Assembly (NCBI GenBank): GCA_904502265.1
Contig: CAJGDT010000001.1
Location: forward strand, 1-34,551
DNA length: 34,551 bases
Reading direction: 5' to 3'
From: an uncultured Barnesiella sp.
Lineage (GTDB): Bacteria > Bacteroidota > Bacteroidia > Bacteroidales > Barnesiellaceae_A
The notes under the pieces were generated by a model. The model worked only from the letters and a program-made list of their open reading frames with translations. It made no database searches and was not told the origin of the DNA. This document shows, one piece after another, positions 15,742 to 34,551 of the stretch; the first letter of the stretch is position 1, and every line of letters begins with the position of its first letter. The translations under genes were made by a program, and so were the position numbers.

Positions 15742-16488
15742 TTATTTGAATCCTTGTGTTGCAATAAACTCTCGCCACACTTGTGTAAAGTGTTCGTTGT
15801 CTTTGAGGGTATAGCGTACATCGGTAAATACTTGTGCAAGGGTCTCCTTGTTGTTTTCCTCGACAAAGTGGCGATTGATGGGTAGGGACTCTTTCTCGGC
15901 ATACAACTCTTTGATGCGCTCGAGGGTGTAGTCGTTGTATTGTTCGTGATGGATACAAGCTTCAATAGGAAGGCGCTCGACTTGCTCGGGCATGCCGTCG
16001 GGATATCCTACGGTGAGTGTTGCTACGGGAACAACACGTTGGGGGAGGTTGAGTATCTCTGCTATTTGGGGCGCATTGTAGGTGGTAGTGCCTAAGTAGC
16101 AGCAACCCAATCCGCGAGCCTCGGCAGCAGTGTTGAATTGTTGAGCAACCAAGAGGGCATCAATCATCGCAGTGTTGAACGAAATGAAGTTGTCGTAGCC
16201 GGGTTGAGCGTTGCTTGCCTCACACCATTTGACAAAGCGGTTGAAATCGGCGCAGAAAGTAAGTACGACTGCAGCACTGGTAACAGTGGGTTGGTTGAAG
16301 TGAGTGGGTGCAAGTCGACGTTTCATCTCATCGTCGCGAGTTACGACTACGCTATACAATTGCATGCCGCCTGTAGTAGGAGCTCTAAAGGCTGCTTCGA
16401 AGAGTTCGTTAAGAAGTTCATTGCTTACGGGCGCATTGCTGTATCGTCTGATGGTGCGTCTGTTGCGCAGTAGTTCCATGGTATCCAT
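15742..16488 (-). CDS. NfsA-like nitroreductase family oxidoreductase
   Basis: The start is trimmed to MDTMELLRNRRTIRRYS (ATG at 16488) because the longer ORF runs into the tRNA and its terminator. The nitroreductase N-terminal RRSxR-type motif and a length of 248 aa fit the family. Confidence 0.88.
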   Translation of the reverse strand: MDTMELLRNRRTIRRYSNAPVSNELLNELFEAAFRAPTTGGMQLYSVVVTRDDEMKRRLAPTHFNQPTVTSAAVVLTFCADFNRFVKWCEASNAQPGYDNFISFNTAMIDALLVAQQFNTAAEARGLGCCYLGTTTYNAPQIAEILNLPQRVVPVATLTVGYPDGMPEQVERLPIEACIHHEQYNDYTLERIKELYAEKESLPINRHFVEENNKETLAQVFTDVRYTLKDNEHFTQVWREFIATQGFK

Positions 16489-16540
16489 AATGTTTGAGGA
16501 TGTTGAGGGTTGATGTATGAATAAGGTATATGTAACTATA

Positions 16541-16566
16541 CAAAAAAAGCTGTCGTTTGACAGCTC
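16541..16566 (-). terminator. rho-independent terminator after tRNA-Tyr
   Basis: On the minus strand: agctgtc-aaac-gacagct followed by TTTTTTT. Confidence 0.75.
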
Positions 16567-16572
16567 TCTTTG

Positions 16573-16655
16573 TGGGCGAAGATGGATTCGAACCACCGAA
16601 GGTAAAAACCAGCAGATTTACAGTCTGCCCCATTTGGCCACTCTGGTATTCGCCC
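16573..16655 (-). tRNA. tRNA-Tyr (anticodon GTA), long variable arm
   Basis: The reverse complement reads GGGCGAATACCAGAGTGGCCAAATGGGGCAGACTGTAAATCTGCTGGTTTTTACCTTCGGTGGTTCGAATCCATCTTCGCCCA. The acceptor stem is GGGCGAA/TTCGCCC, the anticodon stem-loop GCAGACTGTAAATCTGC is identical to E. coli tRNA-Tyr, and the T-loop GGTTCGAATCC is present. CCA is not encoded. Confidence 0.93.
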
Positions 16656-28113: not shown

Positions 28114-29844
28114 TTATTTTTGTATTTGAGCAATCCACTCTGTCACGTTATCGACAGTGGGGTTGGTCAAATTGAGTTTGTATTTTTTATTTACACCACA
28201 TATTTCTTGGTGCAATTTGGCAGGATTTACCTCGGCCATATCGGCTACTGTAAGATAGCCGGCCTTTTGTATAGGAGCTACCCATTCGGCAGGTACACCA
28301 ATGGCAGTATATGCTGCTTCGTTGTCGCGCTTTTGAGTCTTTTCGGGGCGCATTTGGGGGAAGAGCAATACCTCTTGGATAGTAGATTGGTTAGTCATAA
28401 ACATAACCAAGCGGTCGATACCGATACCGATACCGGCTGTGGGAGGCATACCATATTCGAGGGCACGCAAAAAGTCTTGGTCGATAAACATCGCTTCGTC
28501 GTCGCCTTTCTCCGAGAGGCTTAACTGATACATGAAACGCTCGCGTTGGTCGACGGGGTCGTTCAACTCAGAGTAGGCATTGGCCAACTCTTTACCATTT
28601 ACCATCAGCTCGAAACGCTCAGTCAAGTTGGGATTGTCGCGGTGACGCTTGGTAAGGGGCGACATTTCGATGGGGTAGTCGGTAATGAAGGTGGGTTGTA
28701 TATAGTTGCCTTCGCATTTCTCGCCGAATATCTCGTCGATGAGTTTGCCTTTACCCATGGTCTCGTCGGTCTCGATATCCAACTGACGGCACACTTCGCG
28801 CAATTCTTCTTCGCCCATGCCGGTAATGTCGATGCCGGTATGTTCTTGGATGGCTTCAATCATAGTTACGCGACGGTATGGGGCCTTGAAGCTTACTTTG
28901 TTTTCACCAATCATTACCTCGGTTGTACCGTTTACGGCTATACATATCTTCTCGAGCAATTCCTCGGTGAAGCTCATGAGCCAATTGTAGTCTTTGTACG
29001 AAACGTACAACTCCATACAAGTGAACTCGGGGTTGTGTGTGCGGTCCATACCCTCATTGCGGAAGTTGCGCGAGAATTCGTAAACACCCTCAAATCCACC
29101 TACGATGAGGCGTTTGAGATACAACTCGTTGGCAATACGCAAGTATAGGGGGATGTCGAGTGCATTGTGGTGAGTGATGAAAGGACGTGCTGCAGCACCA
29201 CCGGGGATGGCTTGCAACACGGGAGTATCTACCTCAACATAACCGTGTGCATTCATAAAGTCGCGCATAGTGTTGAATACGGTAGCACGCTTCAAGAAGA
29301 TGTCTTTAACACCCTCGTTTACTACCAAGTCGACATAGCGTTGACGATAGCGCAACTCGGGGTCGGTGAATGCATCGTATACCACGCCGTCTTTCATCTT
29401 GACAACGGGCAGGGGACGCAACGACTTAGATAATACAGTGAGCTCTTGTGCGTGGATGGTGATTTCACCCATTTGTGTGCGGAAAACAAAGCCCTTGATA
29501 CCAACAAAGTCACCGATATCCAAGAGTTTCTTGAATACAGTGTTGTATAGTTCTTTATCTTCACCGGGACAAAGGTCATCGCGTGAGATGTATACTTGGA
29601 TGCGACCTTTAGAGTCTTTGAGCTCCATAAATGAGGCTTTACCCATGATACGGCGGCTCATGATACGACCGGCTACCGATACTTGTCGGGGCTCGGCTTC
29701 GTCGCTGAAGTTCTCTTTAATTTCGGTAGTATATGCGTTTACCGGATATTCGGCTGCGGGATAAGGCTCTATGCCTATACGACGCAACTCTTCCATACTG
29801 TTGCGACGTATGATTTCCTGTTCGCTTAATTCTAAAATGTTCAT
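28114..29844 (-). CDS. lysS: lysine--tRNA ligase (class II) with Bacteroidales-type C-terminal extension
   Basis: The start is trimmed to [14 protein letters not shown], giving 576 aa. It has an OB-fold N-domain and class II motifs ([16 protein letters not shown]). Confidence 0.95.
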
Positions 29845-29871
29845 GCTTCTTAAGTTATATACTATTCGTTG

Positions 29872-29879
29872 CAAATATA
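29872..29879 (-). promoter_or_regulatory. Bacteroidota -7 promoter box TATATTTG upstream of lysS
   Basis: The reverse complement of caaatata lies 28 nt upstream of the ATG at 29844. Confidence 0.5.
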
Positions 29880-30025
29880 ATAAATAATATACTTATCTCC
29901 TATTTTTTGCGATTCTATTTAGTATTGTAAGTAGTGCAATGGTTTGTGCAACGCAGTGCAACAAATCGTAAAACTCTTGCCATTGAATGATGCTATAGTT
30001 GTATAGTTGTGATAGATGCGTGGTT

Positions 30026-30037
30026 GCAAACGTTTGC
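30026..30037. promoter_or_regulatory. perfect 12-bp palindrome GCAAACGTTTGC (LacI/PurR-type operator-like)
   Basis: Self-complementary. It matches the core of the classical PurR-box/LacI-family half-site arrangement and lies between the lysS promoter and the candidate sRNA promoter. Confidence 0.4.
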
Positions 30038-30092
30038 GTGTACAATTTGCAGAAAAATTACTTTTCTTGTTGCGAGGTTTCGTGTGAGGCAG

Positions 30093-30100
30093 TACCTTTG
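30093..30100 (+). promoter_or_regulatory. Bacteroidota -7 promoter box TACCTTTG with no downstream ORF
   Basis: Exact TAnnTTTG, with a TTG about 25 nt upstream. The next 340 nt hold no ORF of 60 aa or more and end in a strong terminator. Confidence 0.5.
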
Positions 30101-30162
30101 CACCGTGAATGACAGATAAATGTTTTCACACTCTGCATTTGTAATGTAGACCCCATACTAAT

Positions 30163-30292
30163 AGGTTAAGGTAAAGATTGGTTTTATTATCAAATTTAGG
30201 TTTAGAATAGGTTTTTTAAGGTTATAGATTGTTTAAAGTTAGATTTGATTGTTTGTTAGGTTTTTCATAAGGTTAAGGAATTAAGAAGATTG
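30163..30292 (+). repeat. short-motif array: 6x AGGTT and 3x AGATTG
   Basis: AGGTT occurs at 30163, 30198, 30209, 30219, 30258 and 30270. AGATTG occurs at 30175, 30226 and 30287. The composite AAGGT(T)A-n-AGATTG recurs at 30168-30180, 30218-30231 and 30269-30292. Confidence 0.7.
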
Positions 30293-30405
30293 TTAGTGAA
30301 CCGTGGTGCTGTCGTGAGATAGGGAAGCCACAAAGCCTTGAAAAAGGCGGGTTACAAGATTTGTGACCCACGGAGTGAGCAGGAAACTGCCTCCGAAAGA
30401 ATACG

Positions 30406-30445
30406 CAAAGGAGAATATCGGTGATATTCTCCTTTGTTGCTTTTA
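30406..30445 (+). terminator. rho-independent terminator of the candidate sRNA
   Basis: caaaggagaatatc-ggt-gatattctcctttg forms a 14-bp perfect stem followed by ttgctttta. Confidence 0.75.
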
Positions 30446-30515
30446 TAGGGTTAGTTGTTGTGATCTGAGTTATCTTGCGCTTTGATTCTGGTGCGCAACA
30501 TACTGCAGCACTTAT

Positions 30516-30908
30516 TTATCTCATCTTTTCGAGAATTTTGCGTAGATAATCTTGTCCTATCGATAACTGCGTGCGCATGTAGTCAAGTTGGCTGATGAGC
30601 AAGTTGATTTTCTCTTCTTGTTTCTTAATAGTGTTTTCTTGATCTTTGAGTGTGTTTAGTAACTCTTCCAAGTTATTCGACTTCTCTTCAAGTATCATTT
30701 CACCTTCGCCAAGTATAAACCATGTGGGGTTAAGCTCAGGGTATGTGCGCAGTATCTTAACAATACTATCATAAGAAAGACCTTTGCCCGAGCGTCTTTG
30801 TTTGCCAAGTGTACCTACGGCAATTTTTGCCTGTACAGTTATGCGGTTGTCGTTTAATCCTTTGCATTGCATAAATGCATCCAGACGGGTAAATAATGTG
30901 CTCTCCAT
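30516..30908 (-). CDS. phage CI-repressor-type HTH protein with C-terminal coiled-coil
   Basis: 130 aa. The N-terminal part, F..RLDAFMQCKGLNDNRI...IAVGTLGKQRR...LSYDSIVKILRTYPELNPTWFILGEGEM, resembles the Phage_CI_repr HTH domain ending in the L.G.GEM motif. The C-terminal part is a heptad-rich helix (LEELLNTLKDQENTIKKQEEKINLLISQL). Confidence 0.7.
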   Translation of the reverse strand: MESTLFTRLDAFMQCKGLNDNRITVQAKIAVGTLGKQRRSGKGLSYDSIVKILRTYPELNPTWFILGEGEMILEEKSNNLEELLNTLKDQENTIKKQEEKINLLISQLDYMRTQLSIGQDYLRKILEKMR

Positions 30909-31100: not shown

Positions 31101-33839
31101 TTATTTTTTCACAAACTTCATGCTTTGGCTGTTGTCACCATCTTGGATGTTGAGGATGTACATGCCGGTAGGAAGGTCGCGTACTTCGACACAATTTCCT
31201 TGTGCTTGCTTAACTACTGCACCCGATAGGTTGATTACCGAGAGTGTACCTTGAGCATTGGTGTACACATAGTCGCATGCGGGGTTGGGATATATGGTGT
31301 ACTCAAACTTGTCGTTCTCGACATTATCAACACCTGTTACCTCGAAGTTGGTGTAGATAAAACAGCTGTTGGCAGGTACCGATTGGGTGTAGTTGGCACT
31401 GCTTACTTGGATTGTTTCGTCAGTAAGCAAGTTGGTCCAAGTACCTACTTTGGGGAAGTTGATGGTGTAGTTACCGTCTTTCTCGGTGAGGTTTATGGCT
31501 ACTACCACACTCTTAGTGCCATCGGCGCTGGTGAGTGTTACGAAACGGCCGTTGTACCAGTCGCCTCTGCTCAACTTGTAGCTCAATGAGGCATTGGGTG
31601 TAAACAACTCGGCGTGGTAGTTGCGCAAGGTGTTCAACTTGGCGTAGGCCATCCACAAGCGGTGACGCTCGGGGTCTTGGGCATATTCCCATTTCACGGG
31701 TTTTTCGGCAGTGCGGTCGCCGTTGTAGTTGATACTGTAGTCATAGCCAAGCTCACCAAATTGCCATATCATCTTAGGACCGGGGATGGTGAGGAATTGA
31801 GCTGCATTGGCAATGGCTTGGTCCATGCGAGCAGCGAGGTCGTTTTTCACATCCAAGTGGCCATAGGTTACGGCCTTGTATGTTGTGCGCTCCTCGTCGT
31901 GGCTCTCCATGTAACCCACCAAACTATTTTTAGGCATGCTGCTACCGTTGGCATATACGCCTGTTACGTCGCATACATAACCCATAGCTCCTTCGCAGTA
32001 CTCGTGGTTCATGTTGCGCCATAGCATCATACCGGCCTCGGCCAATGCTTTTTCTTCACCACCGTCGCAGAAGTGCTCAAGAATCATGCAAGCGTTGGGG
32101 TTTACCTCTTTGATTGCATTGTAGTATGTCTTGAGGATGTCGATACGTGATTGGTCGTAGTTTGAGGCGGTGTTGTCGTTGCAAGGACGATTGGTGAAGC
32201 CCTTGGTAAGGTCAAAGCGGAAACCGTCAATCTTGTACTCGGTGAGGAGGTATTGGAGGTTGCGCTTGATATACTCTTTCACACCACTTACTGTGTGGTT
32301 GAAGTCGTGGAACACGCTGAAGGGGTGAGGAGCATCTACGTTGAACCAGGGGTTGTTCGATGCAGTTTTGTTGTTCTTGGCATCCCACCACAACTTACAG
32401 TAGGGGAAGTTACCTGTAGCGTGGTTGTACACTACGTCGAAGAATACGGCGATACCCAACTTGTGACACTCGTCGATAAACTTGCGGTAGTCATCGTCGG
32501 TACCGTAGGCCTTATCCAATGCAAAGAAATATGCAGGGTTGTAACCCCAACTGAGGTTGCCGTCGAACTCTTGTACGGGCATCAACTCGATGGCATTTAC
32601 ACCAAGGCTTTGCAAGTAGGGGAGTTTCTCCATTGCAGCTTTGAGTGATTTTTCGGCTGTAAAGTCGCGGAGAAGCAACTCGTAGATAACCAAGTTGTCG
32701 CGGTTCTTGACAGTAAAGTCGGTTACTTCCCATTGATAGTCCGATCCGGTAGTCTTGAATACGGTAGCGGGTTGTTCCCAAGCCTCTTCGGGGAATTCGC
32801 GTAAGCCGGGATATATGCTCTCGTCAATCCATTTGTCATTCCAGGGGTCGAGGATTTTGGTTGAGTAAGGGTCGGCAAAGCGAATAGCATCGCCATTTTG
32901 AGGTATTACGTGATATTGGAAGGCGTATTCTACACCGGGCTCAAGGCCATCGATTGTAATCCACCAGCACTTGTTGGTATTGTCGCGCTTCATCATGAAG
33001 TCGTTGCTCAACTGCCAGTTGCTATTATCGCCCACCCAGAAGATGTATTGGCTGTATTTTCCTTGTTTATCGCTATCGAAGAATACAAATGTTACTGTAT
33101 TTTCATCGATGATGTTGATACCCTCCTTTGTGCCGGCAGGGCGAGTTTCCTCTACTACAGGTCCGCATACAGTAAGGCGAGCGCTCACTTCGTGCGACTC
33201 TTCGCCTATGGTAGCTTTCGCAGTGAATATGTAATCGCCTTTTGTGGCAAAGTTAATATTTTGTGTGAGCTTATTTGTAGCGTTGGCTTTGTACTCTTGT
33301 GTACCATTGGGACCGGTCACTGTCAGTACCAAGTCGGCATCTTTAGTTGCTGTTGCCGAGATGTCTATGCTTGAACCTTCAGTGGCAATACCCGATGCGG
33401 GAATACCTTCGATTGTGGCATATAGTGCGCCATCCTCGCAAGGTATCATGATGTCGGGGCGTGTTTGTTTCGAGCCATCGGCATTACGTATTACCACACC
33501 GATGGTGTTTATCTCAATGTCGGCTTTGAAATATTCGCGGATAGTGGGGCCGAGAGTTATTGACCAAGTGTTGTCGCTCTCTTTTACCATTTTGTATTTG
33601 GCGTCGTTGTCACACCATTGTTTGGGTCCATTGTGCCATGTTTTTGTTGCGTCAACTACACCAATGTGTACGTAAAGTTCGTCGCTTGCACCGAAAATCT
33701 TGTTTGTGTCAATCCAAGTTATTTTGCCCTCTTTGTCGGCATTCAGCGGACTGGGGTTGGTCATGTATGTACCTGTTTGTGCCCATGCAGCTACAGTAGT
33801 GAGTAGTGTTGCGATAAAAAGAAAAAATCTCTTTTGCAT
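31101..33839 (-). CDS. GH13 alpha-amylase family glycoside hydrolase with N-terminal accessory domains and T9SS C-terminal sorting domain
   Basis: 912 aa with a signal peptide and GH13 conserved regions (FDVVYNH, DGFRFDLTKG, EHF, YMESHDE). The C-terminus YTIYPNP...LPTGMYILNIQDGDNSQSMKFVKK is a typical type A T9SS CTD. Confidence 0.9.
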   Translation of the reverse strand: MQKRFFLFIATLLTTVAAWAQTGTYMTNPSPLNADKEGKITWIDTNKIFGASDELYVHIGVVDATKTWHNGPKQWCDNDAKYKMVKESDNTWSITLGPTIREYFKADIEINTIGVVIRNADGSKQTRPDIMIPCEDGALYATIEGIPASGIATEGSSIDISATATKDADLVLTVTGPNGTQEYKANATNKLTQNINFATKGDYIFTAKATIGEESHEVSARLTVCGPVVEETRPAGTKEGINIIDENTVTFVFFDSDKQGKYSQYIFWVGDNSNWQLSNDFMMKRDNTNKCWWITIDGLEPGVEYAFQYHVIPQNGDAIRFADPYSTKILDPWNDKWIDESIYPGLREFPEEAWEQPATVFKTTGSDYQWEVTDFTVKNRDNLVIYELLLRDFTAEKSLKAAMEKLPYLQSLGVNAIELMPVQEFDGNLSWGYNPAYFFALDKAYGTDDDYRKFIDECHKLGIAVFFDVVYNHATGNFPYCKLWWDAKNNKTASNNPWFNVDAPHPFSVFHDFNHTVSGVKEYIKRNLQYLLTEYKIDGFRFDLTKGFTNRPCNDNTASNYDQSRIDILKTYYNAIKEVNPNACMILEHFCDGGEEKALAEAGMMLWRNMNHEYCEGAMGYVCDVTGVYANGSSMPKNSLVGYMESHDEERTTYKAVTYGHLDVKNDLAARMDQAIANAAQFLTIPGPKMIWQFGELGYDYSINYNGDRTAEKPVKWEYAQDPERHRLWMAYAKLNTLRNYHAELFTPNASLSYKLSRGDWYNGRFVTLTSADGTKSVVVAINLTEKDGNYTINFPKVGTWTNLLTDETIQVSSANYTQSVPANSCFIYTNFEVTGVDNVENDKFEYTIYPNPACDYVYTNAQGTLSVINLSGAVVKQAQGNCVEVRDLPTGMYILNIQDGDNSQSMKFVKK

Positions 33840-33860
33840 TGTACTTGTTTTTTATGTGAT

Positions 33861-33907
33861 TAAAAACAGACAAGGTGGCACACCGTGTTGGGTGTGCCAG
33901 CCTTGTC
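33861..33907 (-). terminator. rho-independent terminator after the SusE/F-like gene
   Basis: gacaaggtggcacacc pairs with ggtgtgccagccttgtc in a 16-bp stem with a 1-nt bulge. The minus strand is followed by TGTTTTT. Confidence 0.75.
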
Positions 33908-33922
33908 AATATACTATAACTC

Positions 33923-34551
33923 TTAGAGTTTTGTTACAGTGTAGTAGGGTGTTTGAGCGCAGAAGTAGAAGCGTACTTCGTAGTCGCCGGCCTCTTCAAC
34001 CTTGAAGTTACCACCATCAGCAACGAGAGTACCGTCGCCGGCACCTGCATCACCATAGTTGATAGCCCAGTCAGAGTTGGCACGAATCTTGAACTCAGCA
34101 CCTGCGTCCAATGTAGCAGTAGCTACCAAGTAGTCCATACCATCCTCTGTAGAGAGAGTCATGGCGATGTCGGGGTTAGTACCCCACTCGTTGAATGTAC
34201 CTACAAGACCCCAAGTTTCAACTGTGCGGAGGATAGTGAGTGTGAGGTTGGTTGCATCGAATGCTACCTCGTAGCTGAAGCCTGCATATTGAGTAATGTT
34301 GCCTGCACCACCGTCGGTAGAGAGGAGCATAGTAGTAGCCTCTGCAGCAGCTTCTTCGCCTGCACCGTAGTTAATACCGCTCCAGTCCTCTTGAGTAGAG
34401 ATCTTCCAACCGTTAGCGCCTTGGCCGTTCAATACGAGCCAGCCTTGTGCGGGTGCACCGGCTACGCTGTAAAGACGTTGACCGTTAGTTTGGCTCCAAC
34501 CGCTGAAGTCACCTACAACGAAGTACTCAACAACGTCGGGAACTACCTCTA
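33923..34551 (-). CDS. SusE/SusF-like starch-binding outer-membrane protein (partial, 5' end outside window)
   Basis: The frame stays open upstream of the listed TTG start to the window edge. It has repeated beta-sandwich CBM-like units with WGLVGTFNEWG...IRANSDWAINYG, typical of SusE/F starch-binding domains. Confidence 0.7.
   Translation of the reverse strand, partial: EVVPDVVEYFVVGDFSGWSQTNGQRLYSVAGAPAQGWLVLNGQGANGWKISTQEDWSGINYGAGEEAAAEATTMLLSTDGGAGNITQYAGFSYEVAFDATNLTLTILRTVETWGLVGTFNEWGTNPDIAMTLSTEDGMDYLVATATLDAGAEFKIRANSDWAINYGDAGAGDGTLVADGGNFKVEEAGDYEVRFYFCAQTPYYTVTKL

Follow-up and report, generated by a model that had tools for sequence, protein, structure and literature searches.

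In the Proteobacteria, CsrB, RsmY and RsmZ (for CsrA/RsmA) and CrcZ (for Hfq/Crc) are multivalent motif-array decoys of a few hundred nucleotides (nt), and the enterobacterial, Hfq-dependent small RNA (sRNA) GcvB uses R1, a C-free, G/U-rich single-stranded region, to target the C/A-rich leaders of many mRNAs. Bacteroides has neither Hfq nor CsrA, and proteins of the RRM-1 type are widespread among the Bacteroidota (PMC13370968). One such protein of Bacteroides, RbpB, binds a C-free motif of G, U and A, GUAGGAUA, with a dissociation constant of 5.1 uM for a threefold repeat (10.1101/2021.04.27.441718). The sRNAs GibS and FopS of Bacteroides thetaiotaomicron pair with start-codon regions through single-stranded, low-GC seeds of 30-50 nt (PMC7366714, PMC11697453). 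The seed of FopS, which is C-poor, reads ...UAGUAUUAGAUUUAAGGUUAA... / GUGUUUUUCAUAGUAUUAGAUUUAAGGUUAACAAA, contains UAGAUU and AAGGUU and has complements in susC leaders; it is also the site at which RbpB was mapped by cross-linking and immunoprecipitation, and RbpB titrates FopS away from its targets (PMC11697453). The present study concerns an element at positions 30093-30445 of a 34,551-nt stretch of DNA from an uncultured Barnesiella sp. (contig CAJGDT010000001.1 of assembly GCA_904502265.1), the whole of which is referred to here as the window. From its sequence, the plus strand at ~30105-30445 is very probably a conserved and previously undescribed stand-alone non-coding RNA gene of ~340 nt, extending from a Bacteroidetes promoter to an intrinsic terminator and built around an array of short motifs almost devoid of C.

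The element is housed in a 670-nt gap between two minus-strand genes, lysS (28114-29844), from which the RNA diverges, and an open reading frame (ORF) of 130 amino acids (aa) at 30516-30908, with which it converges. An initial annotation of the window had proposed a novel sRNA that begins at an exact TAnnTTTG box, ends in a perfect 14-base-pair (bp) hairpin with a T-rich tail and has no ORF that reaches 60 aa. Each of these elements was confirmed, and the proposal as a whole is now strongly supported by a promoter, a terminator and covarying hairpins that are kept in 15 syntenic loci, together with a lack of conserved coding potential and of any Rfam match. The Bacteroides promoter consensus is TAnnTTTG / TTTG, and the box found here, TACCTTTG, has an extended form, TACCTTTGCA, that is without variation in all 13 homologues of the alignment from which conservation was counted. 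Also conserved among homologues are an AAAAATT element and a TTG at -33, 19-20 nt upstream of the -7 box, and the transcription start is predicted at ~30105-30107. At the other end, the core of the terminator is a perfect 14-nt inverted repeat (30406-30419 / 30423-30436) followed by TTGCTTTTAT, and the plus strand scored as a terminator; the hairpin (30405-30437) is terminator-like on the minus strand as well and could serve the RNA and the convergent small ORF jointly. All of the marks of an independent unit, namely the -7 TAnnTTTG, the -33 TTG (spacing ~19-21 nt) and a GC-containing hairpin with a U tract, are conserved.

No ORF of at least 60 aa overlaps 30093-30445, where the longest are of 32-40 aa. 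The ORFs inside the element differ between homologues in both position and frame, with neither conserved, and a protein-coding gene is ruled out on this ground. The 11-codon ATG...TAA mini-ORF at 30109-30144 that had been pointed out initially does exist; it lies within the covarying hairpins P1 and P2, and its ATG is gone in distant homologues.

Homologues were sought from both neighbouring genes. A scan anchored on LysS, in which each GTDB species was represented by one genome, gave 80 loci, of which a single one carried the RNA (L001, a metagenome-assembled genome from sheep rectum labelled 'Bacteroidaceae', with a LysS identity of 92%); there were no profile matches in the other 79, which included Coprobacter, Parabacteroides, Bacteroides, Muribaculaceae and others. 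The 130-aa ORF has 99 homologue clusters, nearly all from uncultured Bacteroidales, and nine of these (59-84% identical to the window ORF by alignment) were looked up, giving 14 loci. In total, full-length homologues of the RNA were found in 15 syntenic loci (L001, L084-L096 and L099), always between the small helix-turn-helix (HTH) gene and lysS and on the strand opposite to these genes, with E values of 4e-16 to 1e-85 for single-sequence searches and 5e-70 to 3e-109 for the profile. The gene order SusF, alpha-amylase with a type IX secretion system (T9SS) tail, small ORF, gap of 570-1060 nt, LysS, GpsA and PGI is common to 14 loci. Compared with the window, L092 (4409-5466) and L093/L094 (4421-5335) have 250-490 nt more between LysS and the small ORF, and this extra sequence lies upstream of the RNA promoter. 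Two remoter homologues of the small ORF (50-51% identical by alignment) occur in other contexts, on short contigs in which the RNA was not found.

Searches further afield gave no additional members. No second copy of the RNA was detected by profile within the 34.5-kb window, viral contigs scanned for the invariant 21-mer of the array gave 0 matches, and distant blastn searches yielded one 36-nt chance match among phages and none among plasmids. When metagenomes were scanned with a DNA pattern of two blocks drawn from the invariant segments, three matches came up, all attributable to chance (an ABC-type coding sequence and others). On the sequences covered, the RNA is confined to one clade of uncultured animal-gut Bacteroidales. 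When Rfam 15 was consulted, as had been suggested with the initial annotation, the RNA was assigned to no known family: at gathering thresholds the sole match in the whole window was a tRNA (16573-16655), and at E <= 10 the region 29800-30600 gave three chance-level matches of 11-19 bits, against thresholds of 60-290. ARAGORN found no tmRNA.

The most unusual part of the RNA is its centre. Between 30161 and 30295 there are just two C in 135 nt, a feature that had not been remarked upon before, and all 13 homologues contain only 3-5 C per ~140 nt. It had been claimed that AGGTT occurs here six times and AGATTG three times, in a recurring composite, and this description held: AAGGT starts at 30168, 30218 and 30269 and AGATTG at 30175, 30226 and 30287, so that the composite returns every 50-61 nt, and the enrichment survives composition-matched shuffling. 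In 5000 dinucleotide shuffles of a 141-nt stretch, AGGTT was expected 1.25 times (P = 4e-4) and AGATTG 0.06 times, and WAGRTT, which is present ten times, was expected 1.46 times (P < 2e-4). Seven to ten copies of AGRTT are retained in 12 of the 13 homologues, and three in L092. Within 850 kb of Bacteroidales loci, the combination of motif cluster and C-poor window was found in the clade homologues only.

Without C, the array is limited to A-U and G.U pairs and would thus stay single-stranded and exposed. RNAalifold found no covariation-supported helix within it, its sole prediction being a weak, invariant hairpin of seven pairs (columns 99-117) in the region of the 21-mer; site 1 reads AUAGGAUUAAGG in 6 of the 13 homologues. 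By working analogy with protein-sponge sRNAs in general, which make up no family, the motifs are enriched, conserved in copy number and accessible by prediction. A weak AUCA/UGAU pairing within the array (an inverted repeat) is, as judged by eye, not consistently conserved. Inside the array, TAGATTTG at 30240-30247 fits the Bacteroides -7 consensus TAnnTTTG, and most homologues keep TAGATTTG or TAAATTTG; judged from its sequence, it may be the internal promoter of a shorter transcript of ~190 nt or a coincidence of motif composition. On the minus strand, the antisense of the array at 30239-30268 has the look of a start region typical of Bacteroidales and contains a mini-ORF of nine codons (AACCTT ATG AAA AAC CTA ACA AAC AAT CAA ATC TAA); its ATG is unconserved, distant homologues having GAT or AAT in place of CAT.

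The array is flanked on both sides by folded domains (Table 1). Helix covariation and motif conservation had been named as checks with the initial annotation, and in the clade homologues the helices do covary and the motif array is conserved. For P1 and P2, 90.9% of cells are paired as compared with 24-55% for slid partners, four pairs show compensatory changes and the covariation score was reached in 0 of 500 shuffles. For P3, P4 and the terminator together, the paired share of cells is 95.9%, as opposed to 40-55% when the partners are slid, 16 pairs are double-changed and, again, none of 500 shuffles reached the covariation score. The stem of P5 is retained with differing sequences in per-sequence folds, the MAFFT alignment there being too poor for column counts, and in P6 GAGCAGGAAACTGC is mostly conserved, with a rearrangement of the region in L087 and L088. 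The minimum free energy z-score of the RNA is -5.6. Both of the GAAA-capped hairpins noted earlier are present (P4 and P6), whereas the closing helix ccgtgg/ccacgg proposed with them had to be given up: GTGG at 30303-30306 instead pairs locally with CCAC at 30328-30331, and homologues have the compensatory pairs GAAGTT/AACTTC and ACAGC/GCTGT.

Table 1. Predicted features of the RNA gene and its upstream region, in window coordinates
Feature	Position	Strand	Description
Upstream palindrome	30026-30037		Even palindrome GCAAACGTTTGC, clade consensus tGCAAnCGnTTGCa; centre ~-74 from the predicted start; aligned in 11/11 upstream regions
Promoter	30052-30100	+	GAAAAATT (30052-30059), A-rich; TTGTTG (30067-30072), -33-like; TACCTTTG (30093-30100), -7 box, extended form TACCTTTGCA
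5' domain	30105-30150	+	Hairpins P1 (30105-30129) and P2 (30132-30150); same fold for each homologue folded singly
Central array	30161-30295	+	Nearly C-free, predicted unpaired; ten AGRTT (WAGRUU) motifs starting at 30163, 30175, 30198, 30209, 30219, 30226, 30241, 30258, 30270 and 30287
Invariant 21-mer	30166-30186	+	TTAAGGTAAAGATTGGTTTTA; AAGGU motif, AGAUUG motif and U tract; identical in 13/13 aligned homologues and in L099
Invariant block	30245-30253	+	TTGATTGTT; from the 13-homologue alignment
Final array motif	30286-30292	+	AAGATTG; conserved, GATT invariant
Hairpin P3	30303-30331	+	Outer stem GTGG/CCAC, internal loop, inner stem CTGTC/GATAG, GUGA (GNRA) loop; GUGA-capped hairpin at 30309-30322; compensatory changes in both stems
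Hairpin P4	30335-30348	+	GCCUU-GAAA-AAGGC; one-sided changes only, covariation support weak
Hairpin P5	30349-30369	+	GGGUUACAA/UUGUGACCC; lengths vary in homologues, e.g. GGAGGUUGCAG/CUGCAACCUCC
Hairpin P6	30371-30395	+	CGGAG...GCAG-GAAA-CUGC-CUCCG; GAAA-capped hairpin at 30379-30390; per-sequence folds
Intrinsic terminator	30405-30446	+	Stem of 14-15 bp (30405-30437), tail UUGCUUUUAU; compensatory changes in 11/15 pairs, 100% of cells paired

Across homologues, the helix cells contain 41 G.U against 5 A.C, which points to the plus strand as the one that is transcribed and folded. This bears on whether the element acts in cis or at the level of DNA, as an iteron or operator array (an alternative already raised in the initial annotation), as a minus-strand lysS leader, or as a G-free, C-rich Rho-loading insulator against minus-strand read-through from the small ORF towards lysS. 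Four features would suit such a role: the motifs are repeated directly, in a single orientation; the minus strand of the array is G-free and C-richer, of the type preferred by Rho; the terminal hairpin is terminator-like on both strands; and the element is invariably placed with lysS on one side and the small ORF on the other. Nevertheless, a role of this kind appears highly improbable, given the invariant plus-strand promoter, the ratio of G.U to A.C, the conserved proximal promoter that serves lysS by itself and the covarying flanking hairpins, which a DNA array would not need; moreover, the avoidance of C is a strand-specific property at the RNA level. No DnaA boxes (<=1 mismatch) were found in 29845-30515, and an oriC or iteron array is rejected both for this reason and because the repeats are part of a transcription unit that covaries. 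A lysS leader, whether T-box, L-box or another cis-regulator, is likewise rejected, since the helices favour the opposite strand, Rfam gives no T-box or Lysine riboswitch match, and lysS has its own TATATTTG box, on the minus strand at 29872-29879, ~28 nt upstream of its ATG.

The new RNA has much in common with GibS and FopS, all being intergenic sRNAs of Bacteroidales with their own sigma-ABfr-type promoter and intrinsic terminator (PMC7366714, PMC11697453). They share a long, low-GC, C-poor single-stranded region and the short words UAGAUU, AAGGUU and GUUUUUCAUA; in GibS and FopS the C-poor region doubles as seed and RbpB site and there is a tie to polysaccharide-utilisation control. However, GibS and FopS are ~80-145 nt long as opposed to ~340 nt, and they carry a single seed, which is single-stranded, occupies the extreme 5' end and precedes the terminator, whereas in the new RNA two hairpins come first, the array starts ~55 nt in, and six hairpins, covarying or conserved, enclose some ten motif copies. 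FopS is also present in 12-15 copies per genome, compared with one copy of the new RNA in the 34.5-kb window. Homology to GibS or FopS was rejected: the best local alignment to the R1' consensus scored 21, as against 17.1 +/- 2.8 for composition-matched shuffles (P = 0.12). The RNA is therefore placed, from sequence comparison, in a new sRNA family that is an analogue of FopS and not a homologue.

The likeness to the proteobacterial decoys is one of layout. CsrB, RsmY, RsmZ and CrcZ are also stand-alone RNAs in which a short motif is repeated many times, and CrcZ is similar in size. CsrB and CrcZ differ in using GGA or A-rich CA motifs in place of WAGRUU, and in presenting their sites in hairpin loops and not in one long, unstructured, C-free stretch. 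GGA occurs five times in the whole RNA and once in the array (AAGGAA, 30276-30281), and the GGA/ANGGA loops of the CsrB/RsmZ type are not seen. GcvB resembles the new RNA in its C-free, G/U-rich single-stranded region; it belongs to another phylum and is Hfq-dependent, and the new RNA matches it in neither sequence nor structure, has a much longer array and contains repeated motifs.

Taken by analogy, the favoured reading is that the array may be a multivalent decoy that titrates an RbpB-like RRM-1 single-strand RNA-binding protein, for which a probability of roughly 0.35-0.4 is estimated. A sponge or scaffold for an unnamed RNA-binding protein had been suggested initially; that role stays conjectural, and what has been added is a concrete candidate, an RbpB-type RRM-1 protein, by virtue of its C-free binding motif. 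The array words UAGGUU, UAGGAUU, AAGGUU and UAGAUU agree with the specificity of RbpB on motif comparison, binding in this clade being a prediction only. In such a scheme, the array would be exposed as a single strand, with the flanking hairpin domains shielding the ends of the RNA, and would act in trans as a multivalent platform. Titration of the RRM-1 protein would then shift the balance among the protein, sRNAs and mRNAs, and the array motifs could additionally pair with G-poor mRNA leaders that contain AAYCU.

Several observations weigh against a decoy for an RRM-1 protein. The 34.5-kb window contains no RRM gene. The invariant 21-mer and TTGATTGTT are more conserved than a degenerate array of protein sites would require and are a better fit to a specific base-pairing partner. 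L092 keeps the invariant blocks with just three AGRTT motifs, and a high multiplicity of sites is thus not strictly required. The RbpB motifs derive from B. thetaiotaomicron, which belongs to another clade, the affinities of RbpB are merely micromolar, and the similarity to the FopS seed, as noted above, is no higher than that of the composition-matched background (P = 0.12).

The same invariant blocks raise the possibility of a multi-seed base-pairing sRNA, in which the C-free stretch would pair in trans with G-poor, C/A-rich leaders and start regions through AACCU and AAUCU sites (for example, those of susC-like and envelope-protein genes) and repress their translation, perhaps in competition with an RRM-1 protein. 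By analogy with described sRNAs this is possible, if somewhat unlikely, and it ranks close to the decoy. The 21-mer and TTGATTGTT resemble seeds fixed by conserved partners, the start-codon seeds of GibS and FopS provide a precedent (PMC7366714, PMC11697453), and the FopS seed, complementary to susC leaders, has both UAGAUU and AAGGUU. Among the 26 genes in the window, start regions (-40 to +5) are G-poor (15% G), and the RNA adjoins a starch-utilisation-type locus with SusF and amylase; a further parallel is R1 of GcvB. On the other hand, complementarity to these 26 start regions did not exceed that of shuffled queries (mean -11.7 vs -12.5 kcal/mol), there were no AAYCT clusters at the gene starts of the window and AAYCT was not enriched in the start regions. 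Nor does the rest of the window contain a complement of the 21-mer; as ~40 kb of unique clade sequence was covered, the negative outcome is weak. The seed of GibS and FopS is 5'-terminal as opposed to the internal array seen here. The tests made fail to separate a decoy from a base-pairing RNA.

A third possibility, which is decidedly improbable, is that the array is a decoy or scaffold for another single-strand binder unrelated to RRM-1, such as ribosomal protein S1, the 30S subunit, a KH or cold-shock protein or an RNase. The depletion of C, the motif enrichment and the uniqueness to the clade would apply equally to such a partner, the identity of the protein is unconstrained by the present analysis, and the antisense of the array resembles a Bacteroidales start region (AACCUUAUGAAAAAC), which would make the sense strand an 'anti-leader'. 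RbpB, in contrast, has the only experimentally defined C-free G/U/A specificity found for the Bacteroidota.

Synthesis of the RNA may be subject to control from an upstream site. An even palindrome, GCAAnCGnTTGC, is conserved ~74 nt upstream of the predicted start in the 11 upstream regions that were compared, and every one of the 15 RNA-bearing loci contains GCAANCGNTTGC once and once only, as against 1 of 84 other loci in which it is present; with <=1 mismatch allowed, the window contains one match. Even palindromes with a central CG are a hallmark of LacI-family operators (PMC4052901). The palindrome probably serves as operator for a dimeric, LacI-family type of transcription factor (LacI/PurR/CcpA-like), and its even form with a central CG suggests, without proof, that the RNA is under a dimeric sugar- or nucleoside-responsive regulator. 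Such a regulator, bound at the -74 palindrome, would set transcription and tie the RNA to carbon status. It is conceivable, if doubtful, that the Bacteroidota have in this RNA their first natural protein-titrating sponge, a counterpart of CsrB and CrcZ for RRM-1 proteins that is switched by a LacI-type sugar sensor and resets polysaccharide-utilisation control. Between the lysS and RNA promoters there are also three direct GTGCAA words, ~11-13 nt apart (in the region of 29934-29962 and 29994-30015), which closer relatives keep and which resemble half-sites of the palindrome, and adjoining them is a tandem repeat of TATAGTTG in 2.6 copies.

The 130-aa ORF, a constant neighbour of the RNA in the clade, has no assignment in Pfam, NCBIfam or PHROG. 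Its AlphaFold2 model (mean predicted local distance difference test score of 89) has a five-helix HTH domain like those of lambda, 434 and P22 c2, with a C-terminal helix of ~50 residues. Beyond it, on the minus strand at 31101-34551 and in L084-L095, an alpha-amylase that carries a T9SS sorting domain at its C terminus is preceded by a SusF/SusE-like gene, forming the 3' end of a starch-utilisation-type locus, and this end is conserved beside the small ORF and the RNA. Elsewhere in the window, a tRNA-Tyr (GTA) lies at 16572-16655 on the minus strand and is overlapped by a mechanically called ORF (15742-16596, GTG start); since this ORF runs into the tRNA, the start of the nitroreductase gene is probably further downstream. 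TAATC(A/C) is found upstream of the ATG (by eye, at ~10-25 nt) in 5 of the 26 genes (9611(-), 10708(-), 10973(+), 14100(+) and 33839(-)), at a density of 4.3 per kb in start regions as compared with 0.63 per kb in coding sequence, and three of the five genes encode secreted-type domains (one is an M16 peptidase, and the other two, a CotH protein and an amylase, have T9SS tails). Pairing of UAAUC with the GAUUG of the RNA would be possible via a terminal G.U, over ~6 bp only.

To our knowledge, the Bacteroidota are without Hfq, ProQ and CsrA, and the sole handles so far on their global post-transcriptional control are RRM-1 proteins (RbpB) and short sRNAs (GibS and FopS). On the evidence of its conservation, the RNA appears real and novel and its architecture unusual, and its function is inferred. 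If the decoy is true, the RNA would be a directly testable candidate antagonist of RRM-1 proteins. Even as a multi-seed sRNA, it would have an unusual layout, in which a C-free single strand is set between covarying hairpin domains and a putative LacI-type operator lies upstream. In either case, the catalogue of Bacteroidales riboregulators would extend to uncultured lineages of the livestock gut.

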